DNA from: Nitrospirota bacterium
GTDB taxonomy: Bacteria; Nitrospirota; UBA9217
DNA: 64,000 nucleotides
NCBI GenBank assembly: GCA_963663225.1
Contig: OY760142.1
Location: 256,001 to 320,000, forward strand
Direction of reading: 5' to 3'
In this document: positions 20,255 to 47,083 of the stretch, one piece after another
How positions within the stretch are numbered: the stretch's first letter is position 1
Layout: every line of letters starts with the position of its first letter
Program-made: the position numbers and the translations under genes
The notes under the pieces: model-generated
Database searches by the model: none
What the model was told of the DNA's origin: nothing
What the model saw: only the letters and a program-made list of their open reading frames with translations

Positions 20255-20255
20255 G

Positions 20256-23153: not shown

Positions 23154-23167
23154 ATATTGCCAGGCAT

Positions 23168-24631: not shown

Positions 24632-24642
24632 GAGGAGGCAGT

Positions 24643-25293: not shown

Positions 25294-25311
25294 AGAAGGG
25301 GGTATCACAAT

Positions 25312-26592: not shown

Positions 26593-26643
26593 AACAGAAC
26601 ATCTGACTGCATAGTATTGATACGCCATAAGTACTCAATTCTC

Positions 26644-26686
26644 CGAGACAGGAGCGGATAACATACCGCTCCTGTCTCGCTTTTTT
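26644..26686 (+). terminator. Rho-independent terminator after flgE
   Basis: 14-bp stem CGAGACAGGAGCGG/CCGCTCCTGTCTCG followed by CTTTTTT. Confidence 0.9.
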
Positions 26687-26929
26687 ACCATCTGATACAA
26701 ACCAAAATAAATATAAATTTATTTTCTATATTCTATATGTAGAAAAATAGTATAAATGTGTCTATATATAGAAGAATTCACCTGCAATCCTCAAATTTCT
26801 TTTTATAGCTGTCAAGAATCTGACTTCGTTTCTCCTGCCCATTTCCTGGGGAAAAACTCATCCGTCAATAAAACCGAATATATTCAATTTGTTATAATTT
26901 TCAGCATGGAGCCAAGTACAAAAAAAACA

Positions 26930-26945
26930 TGGTATCTATATTGCA
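26930..26945 (+). promoter_or_regulatory. Putative sigma54 promoter of the giant modification genes
   Basis: TGGTATCTATATTGCA with correct GG/GC spacing; palindrome GTCAAGAATCTGAC lies upstream at 26811-26824. Confidence 0.65.
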
Positions 26946-27074
26946 TTTATTAATAATCAGTGTAGTAACAGATTGATTTTTGACACTATTTATTTGCCCA
27001 AATAGGCTCATAACTGGTTGTTAAACAAGTAAATATTTAATTCAGCTGATGAATGTATAAGCGGGAGGCTCCTC

Positions 27075-30000
27075 ATGAAGGCAGTACTCGGTTTAAAGCT
27101 GGACCCATGGCATGACACGGGTGCAGCAGTCGTTCTTGACGATGGATCACGATTGCGCGTCGTTGCCATCTCGCAGGAAAGACTGGATCGCATAAAACAT
27201 TCCAGGGCTTTTCCGGCGGAAGCCATCACGTATTGCCTCGAAACCGCCGGCTGCACGTTAAAAGATTTGAGCCTCGTGGTATCGGATTTCATTGTATCTC
27301 CCACCGTTGACGACCGGGCGACCTGGGTCGAACAACCGGCACCCGATGAAAAACAGAACTTCTTCCGTGAGATCAATAATCTCGGCATCCCCGCCGTTTT
27401 TGCGGAACACCACGTATGCCATGCCGCTTCCGCCTATTACGCCACGGATTGGGCCGACGCCGCCGCGCTGGTGATTGATGGACTCGGTTCGCACTATGAA
27501 ACACAGAGTATTTTCAACTGCAGCGGCAATGGCATTACGAAAGTAGCGACATCTCGGAAACCGGGCATCGGTTTGATGTATAACGCCGTTACCGAATTGT
27601 TGCTCGGTTTTGAGCATCTGCAGGAAGGCAAAACCATGGGGCTTGCCGGACACGCGAAAAACGGCGGCAAATGGGCTGAATATTTCCGCGGAAAAACGGA
27701 TGCCTACAACCCATGCCAGATCATCTATGATCAATTTGTGGAAAAAGAGCCTGCGTTGAAACTCACCGCCCCTGCTCATTTACCGAAAAGAAAACCGGCG
27801 GACGACCCTGTCTCCGGTCCATTTCCGCAATATGCGTATGCTGCGCAGTCCTCGCTGGAGTCCAGCGTGCTGCACATGGTCCGCGCCACCGCTCGCATGC
27901 TTCCTGCGAAACGTCTTTGCTATTCGGGCGGTGTCGCTCTCAATATTCCGGCAAACCGGATGATTCTGGACTCCGGTCTGTATGACGACCTCTTTATACA
28001 ACCGGCGGCTTCCGACTCGGGCATTCCGCTCGGGGCTGCGCTTTTGGGATATTACAGCATCCTGGGCGGTGCGAAACGGTGGAGCATGGAGCATGCATTC
28101 CTCGGCCGGAACTACGACTTAAAACAGACAGGAACAGCCTCAACAGCATGGCGGGGTCCCTCCGGCGAATACAGCACGCAGAACGTTGCGCGGCTGCTGG
28201 CCAATGATTATCTTGTCGCATGGGTGCAGGGGCCTTCCGAATACGGCCCGCGGGCGCTGGGGCACCGCAGCATTCTCTGTCTGCCCCGAGACCCGCAGAT
28301 GAAGGCATATCTCAACCGTGAAGTCAAGCATCGGGAAATGTTTCGCCCCTTTGCGCCGATAGTCCCCGTTGAGGAACAGGGAAACTTTTTTGATTTAAGT
28401 GTCCAGTCTCCGTTCATGCTGTTGAATGCAACCGTTCATCCGGATAAAGCAGCACTGATCCCGGCAATTGTGCATGCAGACGGCACTGCGCGGGTTCAGT
28501 CGATCCGCAGGAGCGAACAGCCGGAGCTCCACGCGCTGTTGCAGGAGATAGGTACGGCGACAGGCGTTCCGATACTTCTGAACACGTCGCTGAATCTCGC
28601 TGGCGAACCGATTGTCGAAACCCCCGCCGAAGCAATCGACCTTTTTAAGCGCTCCCGGCTTGATGCTCTCGTGCTGGGTCAACACCTGCTGACCAAGAAA
28701 CCGCTGCAGGAGCTGTTTTCCGCGAAAAACCCGGGGCTTGCCGCCATGCATGCATCGGCCTCAATAACGGCGACAACACCGAATATGGAAACATCAAGAG
28801 AGAATAAAGGACCGCAAGCGCAGCCGCAAAAAGATTCACCCGGCTTCAATATCCTTTTTTATGTAGACCCCCTGCTGGATGATCAAAAAGAGGCTTTTAT
28901 CCGCGGATGCCACTTTCTCAGCACGACTGTCATGAATGCGTTGAAAAACAATCCGCAAGTGCAATGGAACGCCCTTATTTTAGGAAGTGCCCCCGTCCGG
29001 GAGATGTTCGGCGAAGAGTACAGGGAGTGTTTCAGGGAAATCGATGAAAACCTGTTTCTTGATTATTATAAAGGCGCAGGCAGATATGAAGTACTGGCTA
29101 AATCCTTCCGGGGCGAGCACAAAAAAGAAGCCCTTGCTCATTTCGCCGGTCAACTCAAAACAATAATCGGCGATTTCAAACCCGATGTCATATTTTCTTC
29201 CGTCCCCGTCCCTTTTCTGAAGGTATTGTTTCCAAGTGCGTTGACAATATATGCGGAAGCCGGCCTGATGACAACATTTCCGATTTTTTATTCTCTTTTG
29301 TTCGACCCGGCCGGTTTATTGAGTAGTTCGTTCATTGAACAGTTTGCACCGTCGATCCTGGGATCGTCAATTTCCGATGCGCAGCGGACCACCTTGCAAC
29401 ATTTGAGACAAAAATTACGTGAGGTGCTGTCCCTGGACAATCCCTTTCAGGAAGAGCTTGCGGAGCTGAAGAAAAAATACAGAAAGCTCGTTCTCCTGTC
29501 GCTTCCGTTCATCATTGACCTGCACAACGATCCCGGAATCGAATCTCACACCGTTGAAGAGCTGCTGTTCTCAATTCTGGAGAAGATAGACAAGGATACG
29601 GGGGTGCTTATCAGCACGCATCCTCACGAAAAAATGATGAGTGCTGAGCTGGTCGACAAGGTTCAGGAAGCGTTTCCCAATGCAACGTATCTTGCAAAAA
29701 AGCATCACTATTTTACCTCAATCCATATTATTCCATCCGTCGATGCCGTCATCAATGTGTCCTCTAAAACCGCGCTGTGGTCGCTCCTGCTCGACAAGAA
29801 ACTGCTCAGTATCGGCAAGACGTTTTCCGCAGTATCCGACTGGGAGAGTATCGAGGATTTCAACGCGGACAGGAACGAACGATCCATCGACAAGGACCCT
29901 CTTCTGCTTTATCTGCTGACGCATTACTATGTTCCGGAAAAATATTACACCGACGGCGCCTGGATGACCGCGTTCATCCAAAAGTCGATTTGCAGAAACG

Positions 30001-33000
30001 TATCCGGAAACATCGGTCCTGACTTCTATGACGACATTGACGGCGACATGGCGATCCTTGAGGACCTTATCCGTCGCACCGAGGGGTACTTAGAAGACAG
30101 GAAAAAAACCGCCCTGGAGTTCACCGGCGAACGCTTCGTCCCGGAGCTGAGCGGCCAGATTGCCTACGAACATTTTCATCGGTATGCCTTCGCGTCGGAA
30201 TTTGCAAAGAACAAGCGCGTGCTCGACATCGCGTCCGGCGAAGGATACGGCTCCGCGCTGCTCGCGGCCGCTGCACGGGAGGTCGTGGGTGTCGACATAT
30301 CCAACCAGGCCGTCAACCACGCCCGGGAAAAATACAAGGGCGTCGGAAATCTTTCGTTCATCCAGGGTGAATGCAAAAAAGTCCCCTGCCCGGACGGATC
30401 ATTCGATGTCGTTGTTTCATTCGAGACACTGGAACATACGCGGGACCAGGCGGAATTTCTCTCCGAAATAAAGCGGGTACTCGTCAAGGACGGGATTCTC
30501 GTCATCTCGACTCCGAACAAAAAGATATACTCCGATGACAGAAATTACGATAACCCGTATCATGTGCTCGAACTGGACAAAGACGATTTTAATGTTTTGC
30601 TGAATTCCCATTTCACACGGACCAGCCTCTGGGGACAGCGCGTGGCTTTTTCATCGCATCTGTGGCCGATGGATTCTTCGAAGACGTTACCGTTCAGGCA
30701 TTACCGTCGGCCTGGCGAGGGGAAATATTCTTCCGGAAACGAGCCTCCGTTCGATCCGGAGTATTATATTGCCGTCTGTTCGGACAGCACGGCGGTGCCA
30801 GACAATTACATCTCTCTGTACACTGGCGAAAAGAACGAGCTGTTCGCGGAATATGCAAATCGCGAAACGTGGGCAAGGGCGCTGGAAAAAGAGGTCGCGG
30901 CGAAGAATGACATAATTAGTAATCTGCGGCAGCAAATCAACCAGTTTCAAAAAGACGGGGATGGGACCCAAATTGAAGAAGAAAAAACCGCTCCTGAAAG
31001 CACAGAGACCGGAGCTGCTGCAGTAAATGATGATTCGGAGTCGGAGTATGTCTTCGCGCAAACGCTGGTTCAGAACGGCCGCATTGATGAAGCCCTCGCG
31101 GCACTTAATCATATCGTGCAAAATCATCCGGACCATGCAGACGCTCATGCCGCACTCGGCGCCCTCTATGCCCGGAGACAGGACAAGGTGCGCGCTCTCA
31201 TGCACTATGAACGCGCCGTAACGCTCGCTCCGCAAAATACGGGAGCGCTCAGGGCGCTCGCGGACCTTTATTACGTCGATATGGGACGGACCGAAGATGC
31301 CCAGATTCTGTACTGCAGATGCATCGCACAGCAACCGGATGACTGTGAAATACTCCAGATTCTCGCCAATATTTGTGTTTCCCAGAAACAATTCAACGCC
31401 GCACGGACGGTATTTGCGGCCATGCAGCGGCTTGCACCGGAAAACAACGATGCGAAAAACGCAATAGCCGCCATAGACAGGTATCAGAGCAGCGTTGTCG
31501 CCACGTCATCGCCTGAGTTCCTGCACAAGGAATCCGGCATTCTCGCACAAGCGGGTCTTTACCGCGAAGCAATCAGCCTGCTGGAACGTCTGATCGGGAT
31601 GCATCCGGAATTTGTTCTGGCATACAACGATCTCGGGGTTCTGTACGGCAACAGCGGCGACTTTCCGAAAGCCCAGCAGCACTATCAAGAGGCCTTGAAA
31701 CTCGAACCGGAAAATATCATGATCCAGAAAAACCTTGCGGACCTGTTGCTTGTGGGGTTCGGCAATGCCGAAGAGGCGGTAAAGCTGTACTCGGCGATAT
31801 TGCAGCATGTTCCGGACGATCAGGAAGCACTCCTTGCTCTGCGCCAGGCACGCGCCGAACGCGACGATTCAGAGCAGGCGATCACTGACGATTTTTCGGT
31901 CACCTTAGTGCAATGTCCGGCCTGGGGCAGAGAAACGCCGCCGGTCGCGATATCTCTTCTTGCAGGAAATCTCAGAAGCAAAGGCTACAGAGTGCACCTG
32001 TTCGATTTAAACAATGAATTATACCATCAGGTCGCTCCGAAACATAAGATGTACTGGGACCAGGAGCAATATTCCTTCTGGTCCTCACCAGTCGAGGTAA
32101 AAAATCTGATCAAGCAATATCAATCCGTTATCGAAAACATGGTTGACCGGATTGTCGAGAAAAAAAGCAGGCTCATCGGCTTCAGCATTGTATTTACAGC
32201 GTTGCACTTCACACTGGAGATCGCCGAACGGGTCAAAAAACGGCTTCCGGACAGCATTATCGTCCTGGGTGGACCTTCAACAGCAGAGTATGCCGACGGG
32301 CTCAAACATCTGGACAACCCGTTTGTGGACGCGCTCGTCCTGCGCGAAGGCGACATAACCCTGCCGGAACTGTGCAAAAATCTGAAGGAAACCGGCAGGC
32401 TGCTGCGCATTCCGGGGCTTGTCTTCAAAGAGAACGGCTCAATCATAAACGGCGGCCTGCGGGACCCGGCCCCTTCCCTCGACGACATTCCGTACGCTGA
32501 TTACTCGGATTTTGATCTCAGCACCTATACGCATCCCAATCGTCTGGACATGTTTTCAAGCAGAAGCTGCGTGAACCAATGCCACTACTGCGACGAGCGG
32601 AAATATCTTCAGCGCTATCGCTTCCGGTCAGGCAAAAGCCTGTTCGAGGAAGTGCGCTATAACCTGCAGAAATTTCCGGGGATCACGTATATCAATTTCT
32701 GCGACTCTGTTGTGAACGGCTCGCTGAAGGAATTAAGCGAGTTCGCCCGTTTGCTGGTCGAAAACAGCGTGCATATCACCTGGTCGGGCCAGAGCGTCGT
32801 CCGCAAAGACATGACCCCCGACTTGCTGAAACTTTTGGCAAAATCCGGCTGCACCTATTTAAGCTACGGAGTAGAGACAGGCTCCGATGCCGTTCTGAAA
32901 TCAATGAACAAGAAACTGGCTTCACGCGAAGCGGCGGAGAACAACCTGCGCGACACGCACAATGCCGGCATTAAAGCATATGCGAATTTTATGTTCGGCT

Positions 33001-35282
33001 ATCCGACGGAAACCGAGGAAGATTTCCGGCAAACGCTGGACTTTGTCCGCAAAAACAGGCCGTGGATTGACGGCGTAAGTCCTTCGCAGTCCTTTACCGT
33101 CATCGTACCGAACACATATCTGTACGAGAATCCCGGCCAGTTCGGCGTGGAAGACAGCCCCCATTATCTCTACTGGAGCACCAGGGATGGCAAAAACACC
33201 TATCCCGTACGGTTTGAACGATATGAACGGTTCTGCACAACCTGCATTGAACTGGGGCTCGTCGGTGTCGGAATTGTGAAGGAAAAAGTGGATAAATGGA
33301 AACTTCTGGGGTCATATTACCGGTTCAAACAGGATTACGAGCGCGCGGCCGAATGCTATCAGAAAGACCTGCTGAAGCATGGTTATTCAGCTGATTCCTT
33401 GACTGCCCTTCTTGAATGCTACAGAAAGGGTGAAAAATTCAACCCGTCCGAGCCGATGCTGGGCATGGAACGATTGATTTCATTTTACAACGCGAGCATC
33501 AGAGACTTGGCGGACAAAATTGAAGAACCGGATACGGCGCGCTCGCTGCAGCACAAAGATAAATCTTCATCTGGCGAAATCAGCCCGGACGCTTCGACGC
33601 AACTTGCCCACGCATCGGCACTCAGCAGGGCCCAGGCAGGAGACGAAGCAGGGGCAATCAAGGATCTAGAATGCGCCGTTGCATCCTGTCCCGGATATGC
33701 CGTCGCCCGCAACGACCTCGGCGTGCTTCTGCAGAGAAAGGGCGATTTTGCCGCCGCCCGATCTCAGTTTGAAGAAGCGGTCCGCTTGCAGCCTGAGAAT
33801 GTAATATTCCAAAAAAATCTCGCGGATCTTCATGTGGTCCTCAAAAACTTCGAAGACGCGGCTCGCCTTTATGACCGCGTTATAAACCAATCTCCGGACG
33901 ACATCGAAGCGTTGTCCGGCCTGTCAAGACTCTGTCTTGAAATCGAGCAGTTTGACTCCGCCCGCCGCTTTCTGGAGCGGATCCTGGAGATTAATCCGGA
34001 CGATCAGGACGCCCGGCAATGCCTCGATGCTCTGACAGCCCGTGAAAAAACGGATGCTGCTCCCCCATCCGGTGCAAGCAATGCCTCAACGGAAAGTGCC
34101 GGCATCTGTGCGGACAAAATACAGGATACTCACTCATCAACGGTTGTTCCACCGGCCACCCGGCAAGGTAATTCCGTTGCAGCTCCGGCCGTAACCGGCG
34201 TCGGTGGAAAGCAAACGCCCTCTCCAGAACGGAACGGCATTATTTGCCTCAACCCTTTCTTCGAGTTCGAAATTGATATTACCGGACGCGTCGTTGTGTG
34301 CTGCACGGGATGGTTCCGGCACAGCCTGGGAAACATGAAAAAACAGACCATTGCCGAAGTCTGGAACAGCCAGGTGGCGCGATACGTCCGGAGGAAAATG
34401 TACAAGGGCGAGTGGGAGGATATCTGCAATCCGCATTGCCCGACGATCGTACATTATCGAAAATACGGCACCGTTATCCCTTACAGCGAGTTGCACAAAA
34501 ACAAGAACCTGACGCCAAAGCACGTTGAAGAAATTCTTGCGGGCAAGGACTGTCTGGAATCAACGCCGACTTATTTCAAACTGAGCGATTCAAAGGTATG
34601 CAATCTGTCCTGCAAAATGTGCGGCGTCGTGCGGAGCAAGGATTACACGGACGACAAGGCAATGATCCAGAAAAGAACGAAGGACCTCATGCAGTACCTG
34701 GACCGTGCGAAAACGGTTTTAATGTGCGGCAACGGAGACCCCTTCGCGCGGCCCGACACCCGGGAAATTTTGATGCATTACAAAAGCAACAATCCGGATT
34801 TGAAATTCTGTCTCATTACCAACGGATTGCTGCTTCCCCGGTACTGGGATAAGGTAAAACACCAGAACTTTGAATCCATCGACATATCCGTAGACGGCGC
34901 CAGCAAAGACGTGTATGAAAAAATCAGGACCGGCGGCAAATGGGAGGACATCCTGAAAGTTCTGGACCTTGTCAGAGACAACCGGAGCAAGTTCGGCAAT
35001 GTATTGGTCAGCATGGTCGTGATGAGAAGCAATTTCAGGGAAATCCCTGCGTTCATAGACATGGCCGAATCCTACGGGTTCCTGCCGATGTTCAGCCGGA
35101 TCCAGGGTCAGTTCGAAGATGAGAACATCTTCGAAATGAGAGACCAGGCGGCATTGAATGAACTGCGGGCTATTGTGACCGCTGAACGAAAAAAGAAACG
35201 AAGCGTGGACGTAATATGGCAGGACATTATCGAGTTTGCCGATGAGGACGTAAAGGAGGAAGCATGTCTGGTGAATCACTGA
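27075..35282 (+). CDS. 2735-aa multidomain enzyme: carbamoyltransferase, GT99/KpsC-like transferase, SAM methyltransferase, TPR, B12-binding radical SAM, TPR, SPASM/radical SAM
   Basis: SD GGGAGG. NodU/CmcH motifs HDTG, EHHVCHAAS, GGVALN, GPRALGHRSIL, FRPFAP, HADGTARVQ. Methyltransferase motifs FTGERFVP and VLDIASGEGYG. Radical SAM motifs IVLGGP, CVNQCHYC and CNLSCKMC. Confidence 0.9.
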   Translation: MKAVLGLKLDPWHDTGAAVVLDDGSRLRVVAISQERLDRIKHSRAFPAEAITYCLETAGCTLKDLSLVVSDFIVSPTVDDRATWVEQPAPDEKQNFFREINNLGIPAVFAEHHVCHAASAYYATDWADAAALVIDGLGSHYETQSIFNCSGNGITKVATSRKPGIGLMYNAVTELLLGFEHLQEGKTMGLAGHAKNGGKWAEYFRGKTDAYNPCQIIYDQFVEKEPALKLTAPAHLPKRKPADDPVSGPFPQYAYAAQSSLESSVLHMVRATARMLPAKRLCYSGGVALNIPANRMILDSGLYDDLFIQPAASDSGIPLGAALLGYYSILGGAKRWSMEHAFLGRNYDLKQTGTASTAWRGPSGEYSTQNVARLLANDYLVAWVQGPSEYGPRALGHRSILCLPRDPQMKAYLNREVKHREMFRPFAPIVPVEEQGNFFDLSVQSPFMLLNATVHPDKAALIPAIVHADGTARVQSIRRSEQPELHALLQEIGTATGVPILLNTSLNLAGEPIVETPAEAIDLFKRSRLDALVLGQHLLTKKPLQELFSAKNPGLAAMHASASITATTPNMETSRENKGPQAQPQKDSPGFNILFYVDPLLDDQKEAFIRGCHFLSTTVMNALKNNPQVQWNALILGSAPVREMFGEEYRECFREIDENLFLDYYKGAGRYEVLAKSFRGEHKKEALAHFAGQLKTIIGDFKPDVIFSSVPVPFLKVLFPSALTIYAEAGLMTTFPIFYSLLFDPAGLLSSSFIEQFAPSILGSSISDAQRTTLQHLRQKLREVLSLDNPFQEELAELKKKYRKLVLLSLPFIIDLHNDPGIESHTVEELLFSILEKIDKDTGVLISTHPHEKMMSAELVDKVQEAFPNATYLAKKHHYFTSIHIIPSVDAVINVSSKTALWSLLLDKKLLSIGKTFSAVSDWESIEDFNADRNERSIDKDPLLLYLLTHYYVPEKYYTDGAWMTAFIQKSICRNVSGNIGPDFYDDIDGDMAILEDLIRRTEGYLEDRKKTALEFTGERFVPELSGQIAYEHFHRYAFASEFAKNKRVLDIASGEGYGSALLAAAAREVVGVDISNQAVNHAREKYKGVGNLSFIQGECKKVPCPDGSFDVVVSFETLEHTRDQAEFLSEIKRVLVKDGILVISTPNKKIYSDDRNYDNPYHVLELDKDDFNVLLNSHFTRTSLWGQRVAFSSHLWPMDSSKTLPFRHYRRPGEGKYSSGNEPPFDPEYYIAVCSDSTAVPDNYISLYTGEKNELFAEYANRETWARALEKEVAAKNDIISNLRQQINQFQKDGDGTQIEEEKTAPESTETGAAAVNDDSESEYVFAQTLVQNGRIDEALAALNHIVQNHPDHADAHAALGALYARRQDKVRALMHYERAVTLAPQNTGALRALADLYYVDMGRTEDAQILYCRCIAQQPDDCEILQILANICVSQKQFNAARTVFAAMQRLAPENNDAKNAIAAIDRYQSSVVATSSPEFLHKESGILAQAGLYREAISLLERLIGMHPEFVLAYNDLGVLYGNSGDFPKAQQHYQEALKLEPENIMIQKNLADLLLVGFGNAEEAVKLYSAILQHVPDDQEALLALRQARAERDDSEQAITDDFSVTLVQCPAWGRETPPVAISLLAGNLRSKGYRVHLFDLNNELYHQVAPKHKMYWDQEQYSFWSSPVEVKNLIKQYQSVIENMVDRIVEKKSRLIGFSIVFTALHFTLEIAERVKKRLPDSIIVLGGPSTAEYADGLKHLDNPFVDALVLREGDITLPELCKNLKETGRLLRIPGLVFKENGSIINGGLRDPAPSLDDIPYADYSDFDLSTYTHPNRLDMFSSRSCVNQCHYCDERKYLQRYRFRSGKSLFEEVRYNLQKFPGITYINFCDSVVNGSLKELSEFARLLVENSVHITWSGQSVVRKDMTPDLLKLLAKSGCTYLSYGVETGSDAVLKSMNKKLASREAAENNLRDTHNAGIKAYANFMFGYPTETEEDFRQTLDFVRKNRPWIDGVSPSQSFTVIVPNTYLYENPGQFGVEDSPHYLYWSTRDGKNTYPVRFERYERFCTTCIELGLVGVGIVKEKVDKWKLLGSYYRFKQDYERAAECYQKDLLKHGYSADSLTALLECYRKGEKFNPSEPMLGMERLISFYNASIRDLADKIEEPDTARSLQHKDKSSSGEISPDASTQLAHASALSRAQAGDEAGAIKDLECAVASCPGYAVARNDLGVLLQRKGDFAAARSQFEEAVRLQPENVIFQKNLADLHVVLKNFEDAARLYDRVINQSPDDIEALSGLSRLCLEIEQFDSARRFLERILEINPDDQDARQCLDALTAREKTDAAPPSGASNASTESAGICADKIQDTHSSTVVPPATRQGNSVAAPAVTGVGGKQTPSPERNGIICLNPFFEFEIDITGRVVVCCTGWFRHSLGNMKKQTIAEVWNSQVARYVRRKMYKGEWEDICNPHCPTIVHYRKYGTVIPYSELHKNKNLTPKHVEEILAGKDCLESTPTYFKLSDSKVCNLSCKMCGVVRSKDYTDDKAMIQKRTKDLMQYLDRAKTVLMCGNGDPFARPDTREILMHYKSNNPDLKFCLITNGLLLPRYWDKVKHQNFESIDISVDGASKDVYEKIRTGGKWEDILKVLDLVRDNRSKFGNVLVSMVVMRSNFREIPAFIDMAESYGFLPMFSRIQGQFEDENIFEMRDQAALNELRAIVTAERKKKRSVDVIWQDIIEFADEDVKEEACLVNH

Positions 35283-38200
35283 AAGCTGCATGGTCGCTGC
35301 TGGAATCAAACCAATTGCGGCAGGCGCGGCAGCTACTGGTCTCTCTGATCGGCGACGATCCGGCGAATGCCGGGGCAATGCACGCGCTGGCGACCGCAGA
35401 TATCAAGGAAGGAAAATATCTCTCCGCGCTGGAGCTTCTGGAGGAGGTACTCCGAATCAATCCGAAGAACGGCAATGCGCTGCGCGACAGGGATTTCGTC
35501 CGCACGAAAATCAGCCAGGACACTGTCCGAACGGCAAACGCAGAAACCAGCTCCGCAGACGCGCCTGCTGCTGCCGCGAAGGAGATCACAACGCATCCCG
35601 CGCTGGACTCGGACAAGAGCGTCAAAATATCCATTATCATACCTGTTTTCAACCAGATCGCCTATACAAAACAATGCATCGAAACGGTTCTGACAACCTG
35701 CGAACACCACGATTATGAGATACTCGTGGTCGATGACTGTTCCACCGACGGGACCCAGGAATATCTTGAAAGCGTGAAGTCGTTCGTGCGGTCTTTCCGC
35801 AATGAAAAAAACCAGGGTTTCATTTTAAACTGTAATTTTGCCGCCTCACAGGCCAGAGGCGAGTATATCGTCTTATTGAATAACGACACGATTCCGCAGC
35901 CGAATTGGCTTGACGGCCTGCTGGAGCCGTTCGGAATGTATGACAACGTTGCGGCAACCGGCGCACTGATGATTTTCCCGAACAACACCGTTCTTGAAGC
36001 ATCAAGCATCGTTTTTTCTGACGGTTCCGGCTGGAACTACGGCCGCGGCTGCGATCCGGAATCTCCGCGATACAATTTTATCCGCGAAGCCGACTATATT
36101 CCGGGCGGCGGCATGATGATCAAAAAAGCAATCTGGGACGAACTCGGCGGACTGGATACGTACTATTGTCCCGCCTATTACGACGATATTGACTTCTGCT
36201 TCAGGGCGCGCCAGGCAGGCTACAAAATCCTGTACACGCCGTTTTCAAGGATCATTCATTTCGAGGGCATGAGCGGCGGTACGGACGTCACGAAGGGCAT
36301 GAAGCGGTACCAGGTCGTCAACCAGGAAAAATTCAGGGAACGGTGGAAAGACGAATTACTAAAAAACCATTACGAAAACAAGTATGAAAACGTATTCAAA
36401 GCATCCCGAAGGGAACAAGGGAAGCGGATACTTCTGATCGATCATCTGCTTCCTCTTCCGAATTTCAACTCAGGCTGTTTCAGAATGAACCACATCGTCA
36501 AACAGCTGGTTAAACTGGGACATAAAATCACGTTTGTTCACCTGTCAAATACCGACCCTGAGAACTACAAGGATGTGCTCAGGAAAATGGGCGTAGAAAC
36601 AGTAGGCCTGAATTATGAATCATGGGAACATAGCGGGGGCCAGAAAAAAGCGGCTATTATAGATCAAATATTGAAGTCCCTGGAAGCACAATACAACAAC
36701 TATGATGTCGTTTACCTGGCTTTTTACTGGGTGGCCACGCTGTTCATAAAAGAGCTCAGGAAAAGACTGCCTGCCGCAATCATTTTTGTCGATTCGATCG
36801 ATATCCATTTTCTGCGCAAGGAGCGGGAGGCCGAACTGCACAAAGACCAGAAACATGCTACGGCGGCCAGGCAAACCAAATGTGATGAACTCGCCACGTA
36901 TGCAAAGTCTGATGCGGTCATAACCGTCACCGAAGATGACAGGCAGACTCTTCAGAAGGAACTGCCGTACAAGCCATCATTCGTCCTGCCGAACGTTCAT
37001 GACATCGTTCCGGTAGAGGCAGGATTCAACGAACGAAAAGACTTGCTGTTTGTCGGCGGTTTCAACCATACGCCCAATGTTGACGCCATGCTCTATTTCT
37101 GCCGCGAGATATTTCCTGCGGTGAAAAAAGCGATCCCGGGAATAAAATTATGGATCGTGGGCAGCAATCCCACGGACGAGGTAAAAGCGCTGGCTGGTGA
37201 TTCGGTCGTAGTAACGGGCTGGGTCAAGGAAACAAAACCGTATCTCGATCAATCCAGAATATCCATTGTTCCGCTGCGGTATGGAGCAGGAATGAAGGGA
37301 AAGGTCGGCGAAGCTCTGTCACACGGCCTCCCGGTGATTACGACGCCGGTCGGCAGTGAGGGAATGGGAATAGCCAGCGGAGAGCACGCAATTGTGGTCG
37401 AATCACCCGAAGAATGGGTACAACAAATCACACGGCTCTACCATGATGAAGCATTGTGGAATCATTTGTCCAAAAACGGACAGGATCTGATATCAAGCTT
37501 ATATGGCAGCGACAAAATCCGGGAACGTGCGCGTACGCTCCTGAACTTCAGTTCGCGCGAGGATGTGGCCGCCCTGTCATCTTGTCCATCTAAGAACTCA
37601 TTCTCCTACGCGAACGGGATCACCTCGATTGTTATTCTGACCTATAATCAGCTCGAATATACAAAAAAATGCGTACAAAGTATCCAGGCGCACACGACGG
37701 AGCCGCATGAAATCATTTTCATCGACAATGCTTCCACGGACGGAACCGTCAAATGGCTCAGAAAAATGGTCGCCGACAATACGAACTACAGACTGATAGA
37801 AAACAACGTAAATTTAGGTTTCTCAAAAGGCTGCAACCAAGGGATAGAGGCATCATGCGGTGAATACATCCTGCTGCTGAACAATGATGTCGTGGTCACC
37901 CCTGCATGGTTGTCAGGGATGCTTGCATGCCTGCACAGTTCTCCGAACGCGGGCATCGTCGGACCCATGACAAATAATATCAGCGGACCACAAAAGGTGC
38001 CTGCCGTCGGTTATTCGGCCCTCGAAGAGCTGGATTCTTATGCACGCGCTTTCCGGGAACGAAACCGGCACCGCAGAATACCTTATCGGAGGATCGTGGG
38101 ATACTGCATGCTCTTTAAGCACGACCTTGCCGACGGCGTAGGGTTGCTTGACGAAAGTTTCGGATCGGGCAATTTCGAAGACGATGATTATTGTCTGCGT

Positions 38201-40381
38201 GCGGAGCTTCTGGGATACCAGAATTTCATCGCCGGCGATGTATTCATTCACCACTACGGCAGTGTAAGCTTTGCGGGAAATAAAATCGATTATCGTTCCG
38301 CTTTGTCGAAAAATCGGCGCATTTTTACGAATAAATGGAGCGGCGTCGACGCCGGAAGTCCGCTCGGAAAAAATCTGGCGGGTTTGAACGCCCGCGACAA
38401 GGCAATGGAACTGGACCATTCCGGTCATCTGGAGAAAGCAATCGAAGCGCTTCTTAAGGGGATTCATCAGGCTCCGGAAGTCAGAAATACGTATTACAAG
38501 ATGGCGGAACTGCTTCTTGATGCCAAGCAGTATGCCGAAGCGCTCAAGGTGGTCACGGAACTGCTGCCTGATGACGACGATGTTCCCAGGCTCGTGCTGG
38601 CGGGATACTGCGAAGAAGGCCTTGGGCATAATGAAGAAGCCGGAAAGTATGCAACGCGCATATTGAACATCAACTCGACATCGGCTCCCGCTCAGAACCT
38701 GCAAGGAATACTGGCATATAAAAGAAAAGATCTCGCCGCGGCCCGGGATTTTTTCAACTTGGCCGCCGCTTCTGATCCTTCATACGGGGAGCCGCAGACA
38801 AATCTCGGAGTACTCGCGTGGGCCTTGGGAGAACGACAAAATGCGCTGGACCTTTTGGAACGGGGTTTTGTTCTGGAGCCTGCATCCCCGGACAATGCCT
38901 CGGCATACCATGCAGCCGTCACCGACCAGAAAGAATTCGGCAGAGCGGAGCTGGTATTCCGGGAAGCAAAAGCGCTCTATCCGATGCACCGGGGAATCAC
39001 CTTTCTTCTTATCGACCTCCTGCTGAAGCAAGAAGACTATGACCGTGCCATGCAGGAAATCGAACAGGCAATGATGCTTTTCGGCATCGAGGACGGCGTT
39101 CTGTCCGCGGCACTTGATGTTCGTGAAAAAATCGGCCCGCAAAAGGTTGTCGAAAAAACCGGAAACAGGTGTTCTCTCTCATTGTGCATGATTGTCAAAA
39201 ACGAGGAGCAACATCTTCCAAAATGCCTGATGAGCGTAAAGTCTCTTGTTGATGAGATGATCGTGGTTGACACCGGCTCAACGGACAGGACGCCGGATAT
39301 TGCACGGGCATTCGGCGCGCGAGTTTTCGATTTTACCTGGAATGGGGATTTTTCCCAAGCCCGCAATTGCTCGCTCGAATATGCCTCGGGCGACTGGATT
39401 CTTCTTCTGGATGCTGACGAAGTGATCTCCCCGAAAGACCACGCTGAGATAACACGCCTGATCGGCAGACGAAACAATAGAAAAGCCGCGTATTCGCTGA
39501 TTACCAGAAACTACATTGCATCGACCGATACCACCGGATGGACCGCAAATGACGGAGGATATCCTCTTGAGGAAGCCGGCACCGGCTGGGCCGGCAGCAT
39601 TAAAGTCCGCTTATTTCCGCGCGATAACCGTATTCGTTTCGTCAATCCCGTGCATGAGCTGGTGGAACCTTCTGTAAAGAGCATCGGCATATCGATACAG
39701 GATTGCAGAGTTCCGATTCACCACTATGGAAAGCTGGACCAGCAGAAAAACATACACAAGGGGGAGGAATATTATCAACTCGGCAAAAAGAAGCTCCTGG
39801 AGCTGGGTGACAGTCCCGATATACTCCGCGAACTGGCCCTTCAGGCGGGAGAATTGAACAAATTCGACGAGGCGATCGATCTCTGGAATCGGGTCGTGGC
39901 GGTCCGACCCGATATGGCCCTGGCGTACGTCAACATGGGATCGCTCTATCTGAAACAAGGGCACTATCAGGAAGCACTGGAGGCGACTAAAAAAGCCTTC
40001 CAACTTGCCCCCCGCATGAAGGAATCTGCATCCAGCTACGCCCTCTGCGAATTATACAACGGAAACGCTCCCCGGACGATAACGGTCCTTGAGGAACTGG
40101 TCCGCCGCGAACCCACTTATCCTTCCGCACAGATTCTTCTGTGGATGGCATACTGCTGTGACGGCAGAACCAAGCAGAGCGCTACCCTGTTTAAGGAACT
40201 CTACTATTTCAAAAACTCGGTTGCGGCTGATTCATGCCTGCAAACGGCGAAAAAACTGATTTCCGCAGAGCAGAAAGAATATGCCGCGCGGCTCATGGAC
40301 GCGGCCATAGGGAATAATATTCTGAATGATGAGCTTCTCCGCCTCAGGAAGGACTGCTGTCACGAGACAGTGCCACAATGA
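35264..40381 (+). CDS. 1705-aa multi-glycosyltransferase (TPR-GT2-GT4-GT2-TPR-GT2-TPR)
   Basis: SD AAGGAGG. GT2 SIIIPVFN/DDCSTDG/LLNND; GT4 FVGGFNHTPN/GMKGKVGEA; GT2 SIVILTYN/LLNND/FEDDD; GT2 SLCMIVKNEE/LDADE. Confidence 0.93.
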   Translation: MSGESLKAAWSLLESNQLRQARQLLVSLIGDDPANAGAMHALATADIKEGKYLSALELLEEVLRINPKNGNALRDRDFVRTKISQDTVRTANAETSSADAPAAAAKEITTHPALDSDKSVKISIIIPVFNQIAYTKQCIETVLTTCEHHDYEILVVDDCSTDGTQEYLESVKSFVRSFRNEKNQGFILNCNFAASQARGEYIVLLNNDTIPQPNWLDGLLEPFGMYDNVAATGALMIFPNNTVLEASSIVFSDGSGWNYGRGCDPESPRYNFIREADYIPGGGMMIKKAIWDELGGLDTYYCPAYYDDIDFCFRARQAGYKILYTPFSRIIHFEGMSGGTDVTKGMKRYQVVNQEKFRERWKDELLKNHYENKYENVFKASRREQGKRILLIDHLLPLPNFNSGCFRMNHIVKQLVKLGHKITFVHLSNTDPENYKDVLRKMGVETVGLNYESWEHSGGQKKAAIIDQILKSLEAQYNNYDVVYLAFYWVATLFIKELRKRLPAAIIFVDSIDIHFLRKEREAELHKDQKHATAARQTKCDELATYAKSDAVITVTEDDRQTLQKELPYKPSFVLPNVHDIVPVEAGFNERKDLLFVGGFNHTPNVDAMLYFCREIFPAVKKAIPGIKLWIVGSNPTDEVKALAGDSVVVTGWVKETKPYLDQSRISIVPLRYGAGMKGKVGEALSHGLPVITTPVGSEGMGIASGEHAIVVESPEEWVQQITRLYHDEALWNHLSKNGQDLISSLYGSDKIRERARTLLNFSSREDVAALSSCPSKNSFSYANGITSIVILTYNQLEYTKKCVQSIQAHTTEPHEIIFIDNASTDGTVKWLRKMVADNTNYRLIENNVNLGFSKGCNQGIEASCGEYILLLNNDVVVTPAWLSGMLACLHSSPNAGIVGPMTNNISGPQKVPAVGYSALEELDSYARAFRERNRHRRIPYRRIVGYCMLFKHDLADGVGLLDESFGSGNFEDDDYCLRAELLGYQNFIAGDVFIHHYGSVSFAGNKIDYRSALSKNRRIFTNKWSGVDAGSPLGKNLAGLNARDKAMELDHSGHLEKAIEALLKGIHQAPEVRNTYYKMAELLLDAKQYAEALKVVTELLPDDDDVPRLVLAGYCEEGLGHNEEAGKYATRILNINSTSAPAQNLQGILAYKRKDLAAARDFFNLAAASDPSYGEPQTNLGVLAWALGERQNALDLLERGFVLEPASPDNASAYHAAVTDQKEFGRAELVFREAKALYPMHRGITFLLIDLLLKQEDYDRAMQEIEQAMMLFGIEDGVLSAALDVREKIGPQKVVEKTGNRCSLSLCMIVKNEEQHLPKCLMSVKSLVDEMIVVDTGSTDRTPDIARAFGARVFDFTWNGDFSQARNCSLEYASGDWILLLDADEVISPKDHAEITRLIGRRNNRKAAYSLITRNYIASTDTTGWTANDGGYPLEEAGTGWAGSIKVRLFPRDNRIRFVNPVHELVEPSVKSIGISIQDCRVPIHHYGKLDQQKNIHKGEEYYQLGKKKLLELGDSPDILRELALQAGELNKFDEAIDLWNRVVAVRPDMALAYVNMGSLYLKQGHYQEALEATKKAFQLAPRMKESASSYALCELYNGNAPRTITVLEELVRREPTYPSAQILLWMAYCCDGRTKQSATLFKELYYFKNSVAADSCLQTAKKLISAEQKEYAARLMDAAIGNNILNDELLRLRKDCCHETVPQ

Positions 40382-40417
40382 TGCGGACATCGTCGATATT
40401 TTAAAGGAAACTGGCGG

Positions 40418-40795
40418 TTACCGGGCCCCTTCTCTGAGGCCGGCAGCAATGTTCAAATTGATATTGATGAGGATGGTAAGTTTGTCCGGAGACGGATACG
40501 ACATTACTGAGAAAATCCTTTTATCGATGAAAACGCTCAGACTCAGGAGGTCTTCGCGGATCTTTTTTGGTAGTTGGTTGTCTGCCCTCGCAAGTTCGCT
40601 CTGAAATATGCTCCAGATAAGCTGGTTGTACTTAAGCGCTTCGTCAAGATTCTTGCCGCGGTCCCTGGCACCCCAATTGTCCTGGCATTGCTTGAGTTTC
40701 ATGGCAGCTGCAATAAGCACCGAAGCTTCGATTTCACGTCCGCTCATGGTAGTTTTCTGCACAGTTCTGTATGCTTCTAGCTGGCTAGCGTACAC
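40418..40795 (-). CDS. flaF: Flagellin regulator/chaperone FlaF
   Basis: REIEA, EALKYNQLIWSIF, NQLP..IR..LLSL..F and LININLNIAAGL motifs. Confidence 0.92.
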   Translation of the reverse strand: MYASQLEAYRTVQKTTMSGREIEASVLIAAAMKLKQCQDNWGARDRGKNLDEALKYNQLIWSIFQSELARADNQLPKKIREDLLSLSVFIDKRIFSVMSYPSPDKLTILININLNIAAGLREGAR

Positions 40796-41174
40796 GGTTG
40801 ACTACCTCCTGTTCATACTCGATAAGTTTTTTTGCCTTTTTGAGCGCCTGGTAGTACTTGCTGCTCAATATCAACTCATTAATCTGTTCAATAAGGGGCA
40901 TCGTACTGGGAGCCGCCTGAACTACGTCCTTGACGAGCCTCCAGTACAGGGTATGATGTTCGGCAAGATTTTTATCATCCACATACATCAGCTGTATGAC
41001 GAAATATATTCTGGTGCAGGGCGTTACAGCCTTTTTTTCGCTCAGGATATCCTGCTCACGCAGAATCGGGACATTGTTTTCAATAATCAGGCTGCTGCGC
41101 GCATCGCCGTTTGATACGACGGCCCCGCCTACAATCATCCGCTCGTGCGGTTTTAAGGTAATTTTAAGCGCCAT
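40785..41174 (-). CDS. flbT: Flagellin post-transcriptional regulator FlbT
   Basis: MALKITLKPHER..VGGAV..NGD, TP..RIYF.IQLMY and YQALK..KKLI.YE motifs. Confidence 0.93.
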   Translation of the reverse strand: MALKITLKPHERMIVGGAVVSNGDARSSLIIENNVPILREQDILSEKKAVTPCTRIYFVIQLMYVDDKNLAEHHTLYWRLVKDVVQAAPSTMPLIEQINELILSSKYYQALKKAKKLIEYEQEVVNRVR

Positions 41175-41176
41175 GG

Positions 41177-42013
41177 CTATTTTAAGAGATCCAAGAGCTG
41201 TGATTGCATGTTCGTAAGGTTAGAAATCGATTGAAGCGCCAGTGCATTTTTCAATTCGATGCTTTTATAGTTTGCCGAGGCCTCATTCATGTCTGCGGTC
41301 GTCCACATTTCACCATCCGTCTGCTGTGCCGTGGACAATGTCGTGGCGAAATCCTGTGAGCGGTTGATGGCCGCCGCATCCGCACCCAGAGACGAACGTT
41401 TTGCCGTAAGCGTGGCAAGCGCGGCATCAAGATTTGCCCTGGCCGCCGCAACGTCTGCATCAGAAGCCGTATCGGGCAATTCTGAAATATTAAGACCGGA
41501 TGTCCCGGTACTAACATCCTGTTTATGGATTGTTATGCTCGTTGAGCCGGCACCTGAAGAGACCGTCCAGTCCCCCGGAACGGTCGTCGAATTGCCGATG
41601 ATCTGGTTGGCACCCTGGTCATCGGGAGCGGACAGCGAATCGATCTGCTGTTTCAGACCGTTGAACATTTTTAAATACCGGATTCGATCTTGACTGCCTA
41701 CGGGAAACGGCGGATAATTTTTAATAATAGCGTCAAGCGTTGTTTTCATCTGCTCAATATAACTATTGATGCCTGCCATGGCGGCATCGGCAGTGTGTAT
41801 GCTTGTAGCGACAAGATTCAAGTTGTCGTTGATTTTCTTGAATCCACCCACTGCAATGGCGTCCTGTTGCGACTTCGCCCACAGAACGGGATCGTCTCCG
41901 GATGAATTGATTTTTTTCCCTGTGGCCAGCTGCTGGGTCAGTTTGTCCATGACCTTCTTTGTGTCATCAAAACTGTAGAGCGACTGGTTTTGGCCTATCT
42001 CAAATATTGACAT
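41177..42013 (-). CDS. Divergent flagellin-like protein
   Basis: QLATGKKINSSGDDP; C-terminal RSSLGA and ADMNEAS; atypical central IIKNYPPFPVGS. Confidence 0.8.
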   Translation of the reverse strand: MSIFEIGQNQSLYSFDDTKKVMDKLTQQLATGKKINSSGDDPVLWAKSQQDAIAVGGFKKINDNLNLVATSIHTADAAMAGINSYIEQMKTTLDAIIKNYPPFPVGSQDRIRYLKMFNGLKQQIDSLSAPDDQGANQIIGNSTTVPGDWTVSSGAGSTSITIHKQDVSTGTSGLNISELPDTASDADVAAARANLDAALATLTAKRSSLGADAAAINRSQDFATTLSTAQQTDGEMWTTADMNEASANYKSIELKNALALQSISNLTNMQSQLLDLLK

Positions 42014-42037
42014 GCGATCCTCCCAAGCTTAAGGAGT

Positions 42038-42061
42038 GCGAGGGGGTGGAAGCCCCCTCGC
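42038..42061 (-). terminator. Stem-loop between the flagellin gene and its paralog (attenuator or mRNA stabiliser)
   Basis: 9-bp stem GCGAGGGGG/CCCCCTCGC with no strong U-tract on the minus strand. Confidence 0.6.
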
Positions 42062-42085
42062 TTCAAAAGAGTGTAGTGTCTTCTT

Positions 42086-42916
42086 TTAGAAGAGCTTCAG
42101 AACCGACTGGGCTGCCTGAGAAGACAGGCTTAAGGCCGTCGTACCGAGTGACTGACGAGTCTGGAGCATCAGCATATTTGCCCCTTCTTCGTTCATATCA
42201 GCCAGGGTCAGGTTGTCAGCACCTGTCGTAAGTGTGTTGACCACTGCAGTCGTGAAATCCTGTCGAGCATTAATAACAGCCAGGTTCGATGAAAGGTTGG
42301 CCGACACGCTCAGCAAGTTGGTCGTTGCATTGTTGAGCTCGGTAATCGCACTGTTAATACTTGTGTCACCAGCCGCATTCGCTGTCCAGCCTGCCGCGGT
42401 GGAGATGTTCAGACCGGCTGCCGCTGTCGTAGCATCCTGCCCGGTAATCGTGAGCGAAGAGGTTCCGTCTGCGTTGAAATTCACGGTCAGATCGTCGCCA
42501 TTAAGAAGGTTCTTGCCATTGTAACCGGAATCCGTCGCCAATGCGTCTATCTGCGACTTGATTGTATTGTACTGGGCCAGATACGTTGCGCGGGTAGTCG
42601 CATCAGAAGTGCTGAGGGCTGTCTGCGCAATACCTTTTGCGGACGCGATCAGGGCCTGAATGCCGGTAATACCTGCGTTGGCGGCGTTGATTGTCTGTAC
42701 AGCCTGCGACATGCTGTCTTTGAGAGACGAAAGGTCGCTGGCACGCTGGGTCAAGGATTGGGCTGCAAAGAAGTTCGTGGGATTGTCAAGGGCGCTGTTG
42801 ACTTTCTTGCCTGTGGACAAACGCTCCTGCGTTCTGTTCAAAAGTTTAACGGTGTTCTGCAAGCTTACGAGGTTGCTCCGCATTCCTGAGGTTAATGAGA
42901 TATCATTGATTGCCAT
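42086..42916 (-). CDS. fliC: Flagellin, short (276 aa), FlaF/FlbT-associated type
   Basis: RLSTGKKVNSALDNPTNFF, DSGYNGKNLL and LADMNEEGANMLMLQTRQSL motifs. Confidence 0.95.
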   Translation of the reverse strand: MAINDISLTSGMRSNLVSLQNTVKLLNRTQERLSTGKKVNSALDNPTNFFAAQSLTQRASDLSSLKDSMSQAVQTINAANAGITGIQALIASAKGIAQTALSTSDATTRATYLAQYNTIKSQIDALATDSGYNGKNLLNGDDLTVNFNADGTSSLTITGQDATTAAAGLNISTAAGWTANAAGDTSINSAITELNNATTNLLSVSANLSSNLAVINARQDFTTAVVNTLTTGADNLTLADMNEEGANMLMLQTRQSLGTTALSLSSQAAQSVLKLF

Positions 42917-43067
42917 TGTTTTGTTTCTCCTTTTCTAGGTTTTGTACCGGCATTTCTTGCCGGTAGTGTGCTTTTTTCATCAGATAGTTGGTTGAGGTAT
43001 CAGGCTGGTCTTTGTTCTTACATTCACTCCTTTCTTGACCGGATTCCTCTCTCCCTTTTGGCTTATT

Positions 43068-43094
43068 TTATCGGCACGCTTTATAAAAACTTTA
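43068..43094 (-). promoter_or_regulatory. Sigma28 promoter of the flagellin operon
   Basis: Minus strand reads TAAA-GTTTTTATAAAGCGT(15)-GCCGATAA. Confidence 0.9.
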
Positions 43095-43185: not shown

Positions 43186-43212
43186 TAAAGTTTCGACTTA
43201 GAGCGCCGATAT
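43186..43212 (+). promoter_or_regulatory. Divergent sigma28 promoter of the signalling/stator operon
   Basis: TAAA-GTTTCGACTTAGAGC(15)-GCCGATAT. Confidence 0.85.
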
Positions 43213-47072: not shown

Positions 47073-47083
47073 GGAAAACCACG

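Follow-up and report, generated by a model that had tools for sequence, protein, structure and literature searches.

What do two giant multidomain enzymes do beside a pair of short flagellin genes? The workings of flagellin glycosylation have been established in Caulobacter and a small number of pathogens, and the known transferases are of the Maf, FlmG and GmaR types. The question is raised here by a stretch of 64,000 nucleotides (the window) from a Nitrospirota bacterium (contig OY760142.1, positions 256,001 to 320,000), which covers genes for flagella and chemotaxis in a genome of 3.26 Mb (one contig, 99% complete). The original prediction described 13.3 kb of modifying enzymes that converge on an operon of fliC, a flagellin paralog, flbT and flaF, and the coordinates of the open reading frames (ORFs) and their Pfam matches agree with this arrangement. 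We consider that the locus is probably a flagellin glycosylation island in which the usually separate enzymes have been fused into two soluble megaproteins, giant 1 and giant 2 (lengths in amino acids, aa):

27075-35282, + strand: giant 1, tailoring megaprotein, 2735 aa
35264-40381, + strand: giant 2, glycosyltransferase megaprotein, 1705 aa
40418-40795, - strand: flaF (PF07309 at 111 bits)
40785-41174, - strand: flbT (PF07378 at 152.7 bits)
41177-42013, - strand: divergent flagellin paralog, 278 aa, adjoining flbT (Flagellin_N 36.4 bits)
42086-42916, - strand: main flagellin, 276 aa, the presumed acceptor (Flagellin_N 53.3 bits)

The ORFs of the two giants overlap by 19 nt and together span 13,307 bp, and a gap of 36 bp separates the stop of giant 2 from that of flaF on the convergent strand. 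Segment-wise Pfam and NCBIfam scans, by which the domains of the giants were assigned, found five glycosyltransferase (GT)-like domains and five arrays of tetratricopeptide repeats (TPRs) in the two proteins together. Both are predicted to be soluble and cytoplasmic because hydropathy windows revealed no clear transmembrane segment: giant 2 has no 19-residue window with a Kyte-Doolittle mean above 1.6, and giant 1 has a single marginal one (mean 1.67, threshold 1.6).

The enzymes are very probably directed at flagellin, as suggested by a GmaR-like module of GT2 domain and TPRs, by co-occurrence and adjacency with flbT/flaF, and by the variable content of the slot that they occupy. The module lies in giant 2, which has the order TPR-GT2-GT4-GT2-TPR-GT2-TPR:

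35630-36310, + strand: GT2 domain a (aa 123-349; Glycos_transf_2 104.5 bits)
36491-37507, + strand: GT-B domain of GT4/GT1 type (aa 410-748; Glyco_trans_1_4 98.3 bits, Glyco_transf_4 29.5 bits)
37625-38257, + strand: GT2 domain b, start of the conserved core (aa 788-998; Glycos_transf_2 93.6 bits)
38396-39073, + strand: TPR array of the core (aa 1045-1270)
39167-39763, + strand: GmaR-like GT2 domain c, candidate flagellin-initiating transferase (aa 1302-1500)
39821-40213, + strand: C-terminal TPR array, in the GT-then-TPR order of GmaR (aa 1520-1650)

The core (GT2-TPR-GmaR-like GT2-TPR) retains 47-56% identity between genera, and its last module, GT2 plus TPR, is by sequence homologous to GmaR, the flagellin O-linked N-acetylglucosamine (GlcNAc) transferase of Listeria. 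A core profile from six orthologues matched GmaR in the PDB with an E-value of 7.4e-36, and the single sequence (aa about 1302-1411) aligned to residues 8-114 of GmaR chain 22ao_A (E 4.4e-28, 101.8 bits); in both searches GmaR was the best non-TPR chain, ahead of the peptide glycosyltransferase SunS (2e-15). The VDTGSTD and DAD (aa 1383) motifs of the module align to the same residues of GmaR, and the other GT2 domains of giant 2 keep DDCSTDGT and DNASTDGT. GmaR is a bifunctional enzyme that transfers GlcNAc onto Listeria flagellin, with a GT domain of ~180 aa followed by TPRs for which a role in holding flagellin was proposed (PMC9638930). The TPR domain of FlmG from Caulobacter binds flagellins and its GT domain determines the donor (PMC7591256; 10.1101/2022.03.25.485807), which supports the similar split of tasks proposed here between the TPR arrays and the GT domains of the giants.

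The linkage of the core to the flagellin cassette was followed in three samples. In a set of 41 relatives, FlbT and an orthologue of giant 2 occur in exactly the same six genomes, with adjacent genes in 6/6. In an even set of 201 genomes of the phylum (core counted at E<=1e-100, flagellin as PF00669 at E<=1e-8), FlbT was found in 12, the core in 12 and both in 11; the latter always carry core and FlbT on one contig, within 0.6 kb in nine genomes and within 9 kb in two. Flagellin is present in 112/201 genomes, and the core occurs in 0/100 of those that are flagellated and FlbT-negative, so it tracks the FlbT/FlaF-type cassette and not flagella generally. A search beyond the phylum, with one genome per species, yielded 606 core relatives, of which the best 80 (75 loci) were retained. 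Among these 80 the nearest record is labelled uncultured Nitrospiraceae bacterium and the next-nearest are labelled Syntrophaceae, Desulfobacterales, Geobacteraceae, Desulfatiglandales, Nitrospirota and Thermodesulfovibrionales. Convergent flaF and flbT lie 19-5513 bp past the core in 20 of the 31 best loci, that is in 20/25 of the loci with at least 1.5 kb of flank; the 11 loci without them comprise six with less than 1.5 kb of downstream flank, two with 2.4 and 3.2 kb, and three with 10 kb. The ORFs that host the core in other loci are often giant themselves (2006-3413 aa). The original prediction had pointed to enzyme genes unlinked to flagellar loci in relatives as evidence to the contrary; in those relatives the genes stay linked.

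Giant 1 contains, in this order, an O-carbamoyltransferase, a GT-B-like domain, an S-adenosylmethionine (SAM) methyltransferase, a TPR array, a B12-binding radical-SAM domain, a further TPR array, and a SPASM/twitch-like cysteine domain joined to a second radical-SAM domain (Kdo, 3-deoxy-D-manno-oct-2-ulosonic acid):

27075-28697, + strand: O-carbamoyltransferase of TobZ/NodU/NovN/GdmN type (aa 1-541; Carbam_trans_N 122.7 bits, Carbam_trans_C 211.6 bits)
28842-30089, + strand: GT-B-like domain with the predicted fold of a beta-Kdo transferase (aa 590-1005, ~410 aa)
30171-30569, + strand: class I SAM-dependent methyltransferase (aa 1033-1165; Methyltransf_11 89 bits, Methyltransf_31 89 bits)
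30972-31874, + strand: TPR array (aa about 1300-1600; several TPR families over the cut-off)
32094-33059, + strand: B12-binding radical-SAM domain, class-B methylase-like (aa 1674-1995; PF02310 and PF04055)
33702-34034, + strand: second TPR array (aa 2210-2320)
34245-35063, + strand: radical-SAM domain with the SPASM/twitch-like cysteine domain N-terminal to it (aa 2391-2663; SPASM 43.6 bits, Radical_SAM 77.2 bits)

Both halves of the carbamoyltransferase are present (Carbam_trans_N and the YrdC-like Carbam_trans_C), and its gene is the sole one of this type in the genome. Its nearest solved structures are GdmN, TobZ and the novobiocin carbamoyltransferase at E about 1e-66, with GdmN aligning at full length (aa 12-542, E 2.6e-66); the NodU equivalog model gave 158 bits, under its cut-off of 1000. 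The methyltransferase keeps the SAM-binding DIASGEGYG. In the B12 radical-SAM domain the CX3CX2C motif is kept (CVNQCHYC at aa 1832), the nearest NCBIfam models, all under cut-off, are a C-methyltransferase of RiPPs (peptides made by the ribosome and modified after translation), PhpK and HpnJ, and the nearest solved chains are 9ccb, TokK and CysS, C-methylases of varied substrates. The second radical-SAM core has its CX3CX2C at aa 2509 and, as nearest solved chain, cytosylglucuronate decarboxylase (E 2e-6); the model NF033640, 'twitch domain-containing radical SAM', scored 106 bits, under its cut-off of 170. Sugars or small molecules are the substrates of the solved relatives of the tailoring domains (TobZ, GdmN, the novobiocin carbamoyltransferase and cytosylglucuronate decarboxylase), which by homology point the same way, to a glycan pathway.

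The domain at aa 590-1005 was left unassigned by the segment-wise scans. An earlier homologue search with this region among proteins of 259-825 aa found none at E<=0.001, and an exhaustive HMMER search of 1.84 billion representatives found 549 relatives, 364 of them at E<=1e-10. The Pfam family Capsule_synth (PF05159; KpsC/KpsS) matches 24/40 aligned relatives, with a best E-value of 4.1e-11, and the window domain itself scores 19.0 bits against a cut-off of 20. A single-sequence fold of aa 560-1030 was unusable, with a predicted local distance difference test (pLDDT) score of 38.7, and was replaced by an AlphaFold2 model from a 40-row alignment (aa 590-1005, pLDDT 93.3). When this model was compared with the PDB by Foldseek, ranks 1-11 were chains of WbbB (GT99; E 1.2e-9 to 6.2e-9, template-modelling score (TM) 0.55-0.63), with KpsC next (E 5e-8); a profile search of the PDB also placed WbbB first (E 9e-4). 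From its modelled fold, the domain is read as the fifth glycosyltransferase-like domain, with the fold of transferases that use cytidine monophosphate (CMP)-ulosonic acids and putatively with such a donor.

The bifunctionality of GmaR and the very long TPR tracts of the giants would also suit proteins that serve mainly to regulate or to scaffold, as the anti-repressor half of GmaR does, with enzyme domains that have decayed. This is highly improbable in our view, since the motifs VDTGSTD, DAD, DDCSTDGT, DNASTDGT, both CX3CX2C and DIASGEGYG are intact, the core is as similar between genera as given above, and a related population keeps the locus with differences that are mostly substitutions: in a 79-kb metagenome contig from another study, which extends over the full locus, 618 differences and 15 gaps were counted over 19,001 bases.

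A comparison of the slot in relatives, advised by the original prediction, brought out the variable domain content that it had looked for, in genomes G001, G019 and G021 and in other phyla. One relative (G004) has the same two proteins at 94% identity. In G001, of the same genus, giant 1 is collinear only in the C-terminal TPR-radical-SAM part (60% identity), with carbamoyltransferase, Kdo-transferase-like domain and first methyltransferase all missing, and the genes upstream encode an epimerase-like protein, a true NeuB (233.9 bits) and a cytidylyltransferase-HAD protein. In G019 there are five separate proteins, whose parts are of sulfotransferase, pyruvyl-transferase, GT2, SEC-C and TPR types, and genes for an APS kinase and another sulfotransferase lie upstream. 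G021 encodes a protein of 1491 aa with a pair of B12-radical-SAM units and another of 2412 aa that combines radical-SAM/SPASM with five GT2 stretches, and the preceding genes encode a GHMP kinase, a nucleotidyltransferase (NTP_transferase), a DegT aminotransferase and dehydratases. Giant ORFs of other phyla add WbsX, GT9, GT10, FkbM, TylF, CmcI and polysaccharide deacetylase domains, and all of them terminate in GT2-TPR-GT2(2_4)-TPR. To judge from annotation, the types of accessory domains and the match between donor genes and transferases are what a glycan pathway predicts, and their variation between relatives is as expected of a hypervariable flagellin glycosylation island. As a separate observation, two island proteins of G019 (L025, 10374-15101) start with a SEC-C zinc-binding motif followed by TPRs, and one of them ends in a sulfotransferase.

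Some domains of giant 1 (the radical-SAM and methyltransferase domains, perhaps also the carbamoyltransferase) might instead act on residues of flagellin, delivered to them by the TPR arrays in the manner of RiPP maturation. Peptides are common substrates of SPASM/twitch radical-SAM enzymes, two TPR arrays flank the radical-SAM domains in a protein without a classical GT2 or GT4 domain, and among NCBIfam models the B12 radical-SAM domain matches 'RiPP maturation radical SAM C-methyltransferase' best (131.5 bits). This match lies, however, far under its cut-off (281.85), for the second radical-SAM domain the nearest solved relative is an enzyme with a sugar-nucleoside substrate, carbamoyltransferases of the TobZ/NovN/GdmN type act on sugar or small-molecule hydroxyls, and the accessory domains in the same slot of relatives are of sugar-tailoring types; modification of residues as the function of these domains therefore seems unlikely.

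If the enzymes build a glycan, its donors must come from elsewhere, because the locus has no donor-synthesis genes; the system is therefore not the complete one that the original prediction had supposed. That prediction also stated that maf, nucleotide-sugar synthesis, flippase and ABC exporter genes are lacking, and a Pfam scan of the other ORFs of the window likewise found none; two unrelated genes of the major facilitator superfamily lie at 6525-7694 and 10089-11306. The Maf family (PF01973, MptE-like/Maf) has 0 matches in the 99%-complete genome. The search of the rest of the genome for sugar-donor pathways, which had likewise been suggested, returned one KdsB-like cytidylyltransferase and nine NTP_transferase matches as donor candidates, and no nonulosonic acid synthase of the NeuB/PseI/LegI family. 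A sole match to PF03102 (45.9 bits) was rejected as a NeuB candidate: it is a 3-deoxy-D-arabino-heptulosonate 7-phosphate (DAHP) synthase (DAHP_synth_1 287.8 bits) inside an aromatic amino acid (aro) operon.

Several observations weigh against a flagellin glycosylation island. The link of the core to the cassette is not strict. One genome of the phylum (G061) has an FlbT-type flagellin cassette without the core, and the two-by-two association of core and FlbT is overstated because kin are not independent. The NCBIfam matches of all tailoring domains fall under their cut-offs, and the peptide (RiPP) C-methyltransferase model that is best for the B12 radical-SAM domain fits action on protein or sugar. 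The Ser/Thr-rich peptide stretches quoted in the original prediction were located in the 276-aa flagellin, which has 24.3% Ser+Thr against 11.8% in the ORF set of the genome; FlgL, however, is as rich (23.0%), so the richness is non-specific and was dropped as evidence for glycosylation. Three of the 31 best loci (L044, L054 and L056) have 10 kb of downstream flank without flaF, and a further genome (G202) encodes a 2998-aa protein with three GmaR-like modules and has no flagellin. These last cases, together with the fact that GT2, GT4 and Capsule_synth-like families occur chiefly in polysaccharide synthesis, would suit enzymes that serve a target other than flagellin (another cytoplasmic or secreted protein, or a polysaccharide) and adjoin the flagellin genes through co-regulation or chance. 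We regard this as quite unlikely, given that no transmembrane segments, flippase, polymerase or exporter were found in the giants and in the ORF scans of the window, that the core holds a GmaR-like domain and TPR arrays, and that it adjoins flbT in 11/11 genomes of the phylum with both and flaF/flbT in 20/25 loci of other taxa. The protein of G202 is of interest in itself: in this 99%-complete genome, in which neither Pfam Flagellin_N nor a flagellin profile detected a flagellin, the ORF (G202:C16:11365-18660) consists of three tandem GmaR-like GT-TPR modules and is possibly a protein glycosyltransferase with another acceptor.

The original prediction further held that a glycan replaces the outer domains of the flagellins as the surface of the filament. 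The 276-aa flagellin is 52-80% identical to flagellins beside homologous enzyme cores. Among 18 main-type flagellins of this kind (the L043 ORF, whose start is uncertain, was dropped), 10/18 are 270-300 aa long, and 8/18 have 375-514 aa with an inserted domain; a minimal flagellin is therefore not a condition for the enzymes, and replacement of the outer domains by a glycan is not supported. In the flagellin alignment the short exposed segment includes a turn that is conserved and rich in Ser/Thr, G-F-x-A-[ST][ST][ST]..G-L (flagellin residues about 158-168); it is a candidate glycosylation site and no more.

The 278-aa paralog is the more divergent of the two flagellins (Flagellin_N 36 bits vs 53 bits) and, by its position beside flbT, recalls FljJ of Caulobacter, which is described as a regulatory, FlbT-binding flagellin (PMC7591256). 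An ORF in the position of the paralog next to flbT was detectable in 8/20 flaF/flbT loci of other taxa; in G019 and G021 the ORFs at this position are Pfam-negative. A third, orphan flagellin of 404 aa, with a Flagellin_N match only, is encoded outside the window (G000:C1:1260889-1262103), adjoining Vsr, Dcm-type methylase and UvrD/PD-(D/E)XK genes, and judging by these neighbours the region may be a mobile or defence region. In the family to which the window's genome belongs, flagellin is found in 10/44 genomes, all 10 with FlbT and the core, and these flagellins share 52-66% identity with flagellins from genomes that bear labels such as Syntrophaceae and Desulfobacterales; in other families of the phylum the flagellins are canonical and FlbT is absent. 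The pattern suggests that the flagellin cassette or the whole flagellar system was transferred between phyla.

Candidate promoters, assigned at the level of motifs, precede both the enzyme genes and the flagellin gene:

26930-26945, + strand: candidate sigma-54-type promoter (-24/-12) TGGTAT-N5-TTGCA, located 130 nt ahead of giant 1
43068-43094, - strand: sigma-28 (FliA)-type promoter candidate TAAAG-N14-GCCGATAA upstream of the flagellin gene, perfect match
20979-20994, - strand: sigma-54-type motif upstream of flgF
23138-23153, + strand: sigma-54-type motif within the called fliK frame, at its 5' end
16087-16113, - strand: sigma-28-type motif upstream of flgM, the other of the two perfect matches in the window
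43186-43212, + strand: sigma-28-type motif with one mismatch, facing a response-regulator gene at 43553

The sigma-54-type pattern has four matches in the window (0.29 expected), and the sigma-28-type pattern nine at up to two mismatches (1.47 expected); rpoN is present in the genome. In other loci the sigma-54-type motif stands on the correct strand before the enzyme clusters of L016, L018, L042, L045 and L058, with matches in 16/102 loci overall, and in L023 it lies inside a called frame, ~140 nt before the start of the NeuB match.

From these sequences we infer an acceptor, donors, promoters and an order of reactions. The enzyme operon would be transcribed from its own sigma-54-type promoter and flagellin from the sigma-28-type promoter, so that the enzymes would precede their substrate and be ready for it; for Caulobacter, enzyme expression is reported to come before that of flagellin (PMC7591256). 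In the cytoplasm, before flagellar type III export, the TPR arrays would hold unfolded or chaperoned flagellin, as the TPR domain of FlmG has been shown to do and that of GmaR has been proposed to do. The conserved GmaR-like GT2 would then attach the first sugar to Ser/Thr of the short exposed central segment, and the remaining glycosyltransferases (two GT2, one GT4 and one beta-Kdo-transferase-like) would lengthen the glycan from ordinary cellular pools of uridine diphosphate (UDP) and other nucleoside diphosphate (NDP) sugars, possibly with CMP-Kdo. Finally, giant 1 would modify the glycan through O-carbamoylation, methylation from SAM, C-methylation by its B12-radical-SAM domain and a reaction of the second radical-SAM domain. 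The product could even be a glycan unlike any described on flagellin, an oligosaccharide in which Kdo from the donor pool of lipopolysaccharide replaces the sialic-acid-like sugars of other bacteria and which is O-carbamoylated, C-methylated by radical-SAM enzymes, and built directly on the protein by two TPR 'assembly-line' megaenzymes with modules swapped between strains as in polyketide or non-ribosomal peptide synthesis; taken as a whole, this picture is rather doubtful. In a bolder branch of it, the radical-SAM modules may modify flagellin residues themselves.

The remainder of the window places the locus within the flagellar region:

12672-20963, - strand: flgF-to-flgL genes
23057-26592, + strand: fliK-flgD-flgE (end of flgE at 26592)
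26644-26679, + strand: intrinsic-terminator-like hairpin 3' of flgE (14-bp stem with 10 GC pairs, then a T run)

The putative terminator, followed by an AT-rich gap up to giant 1, divides the hook operon from the enzyme operon. Past the flagellin genes the window encodes response regulators, proteins of the HD-GYP and PilZ types, two pairs of motAB and a che cluster. The motility region includes genes for two response-regulator/HD-GYP proteins, of which one has a GAF domain, and for two PilZ-domain proteins (3278-4348, 44073-45560, 45551-46309 and 52499-53560), which suggests control of motility by cyclic di-GMP, and a hybrid histidine kinase gene lies between the two separate motA/motB stator pairs (46326-47773 and 49277-50922). 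A second pair of giant ORFs, of 2582 and 1424 aa with overlapping ends, occurs outside the window (G000:C1:1698951-1710970); it is absent from the BLAST matches of giants 1 and 2, which in their own genome have domain-level matches only (up to 40% identity).

The locus suggests that a GmaR-like GT2-TPR core partners FlbT/FlaF-type flagellins in largely uncultured Nitrospirota, and the same partnership is suggested in genomes that bear labels such as Syntrophaceae, Desulfobacterales and Geobacteraceae. The FlbT/FlaF cassette of flagellin genes also occurs outside Alphaproteobacteria. Evolution appears to have fused whole glycan pathways onto this core, giving proteins of 2000-3400 aa. If glycosylation of flagellin is the function, the giants would represent a compact, soluble route to complex O-glycans on protein that is free of a lipid carrier, a natural set of swappable tailoring modules (sulfo-, pyruvyl-, carbamoyl- and methyltransferases, radical-SAM enzymes), and the first radical-SAM tailoring in a flagellin glycan.

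Among known systems, GmaR of Listeria monocytogenes, which is also the anti-repressor of MogR, shares with giant 2 a GT2-type catalytic domain followed by TPRs, a homologous catalytic domain, a cytoplasmic location and a gene in the flagellar locus. In the window, however, this module closes a protein of 1705 aa with seven segments, has three GT domains before it and has a tailoring partner of 2735 aa; both the phylum and the flagellin regulators (here FlaF/FlbT) differ. FlmG of Caulobacter crescentus and Brevundimonas resembles the system in that its flagellins are under FlbT/FlaF, with a regulatory flagellin paralog, and in being a soluble TPR-GT enzyme. It differs in its size of 596 aa, with one GT-B domain that moves pseudaminic or legionaminic acid, whereas here the conserved transferase is GT-A (GT2), many enzymes are fused and the genome has no nonulosonic acid synthase. 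The flagellin islands and Maf systems of Campylobacter, Helicobacter, Aeromonas, Pseudomonas and Clostridium consist of a variable block beside the flagellin genes, with transferases, tailoring enzymes and sometimes donor synthesis. The locus likewise has a glycan-related block directly beside the flagellin genes, with a content that varies between close relatives, but it has no Maf and its enzymes are fused into megaproteins with repeated TPR arrays. A literature search, in which subscription journals were not covered, found no fused giant flagellin-modifying enzymes, no native Kdo on flagellin, and no radical-SAM, carbamoyltransferase or Kdo-transferase-like domains in described flagellin islands. 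WbbB (GT99) and KpsC/KpsS (GT107) share the fold of aa 590-1005 of giant 1 (TM 0.6, E 1e-9), WbbB also a weak sequence match around the motif V-x-T-x-S-S-x-G-L-x-A; they build O-antigen caps and capsule linkers on lipid-bound glycans, whereas here the domain is part of a soluble protein beside flagellin genes. The A111/114R protein of chlorovirus PBCV-1 is reported to have three glycosyltransferase functions in one soluble polypeptide and to glycosylate a capsid protein in the cytoplasm, forming a protein-linked glycan without a lipid carrier (PMC7826918); it is viral, its glycan is N-linked, and it is not known to have TPR arrays or radical-SAM or carbamoyl tailoring domains. The likeness is an analogy only. 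Judged against these systems by its sequence, the locus is of a known general kind, and what is unusual is the fusion into TPR-scaffolded megaproteins, the radical-SAM, carbamoyl- and Kdo-transferase-like domains, and the lineage in which they occur.

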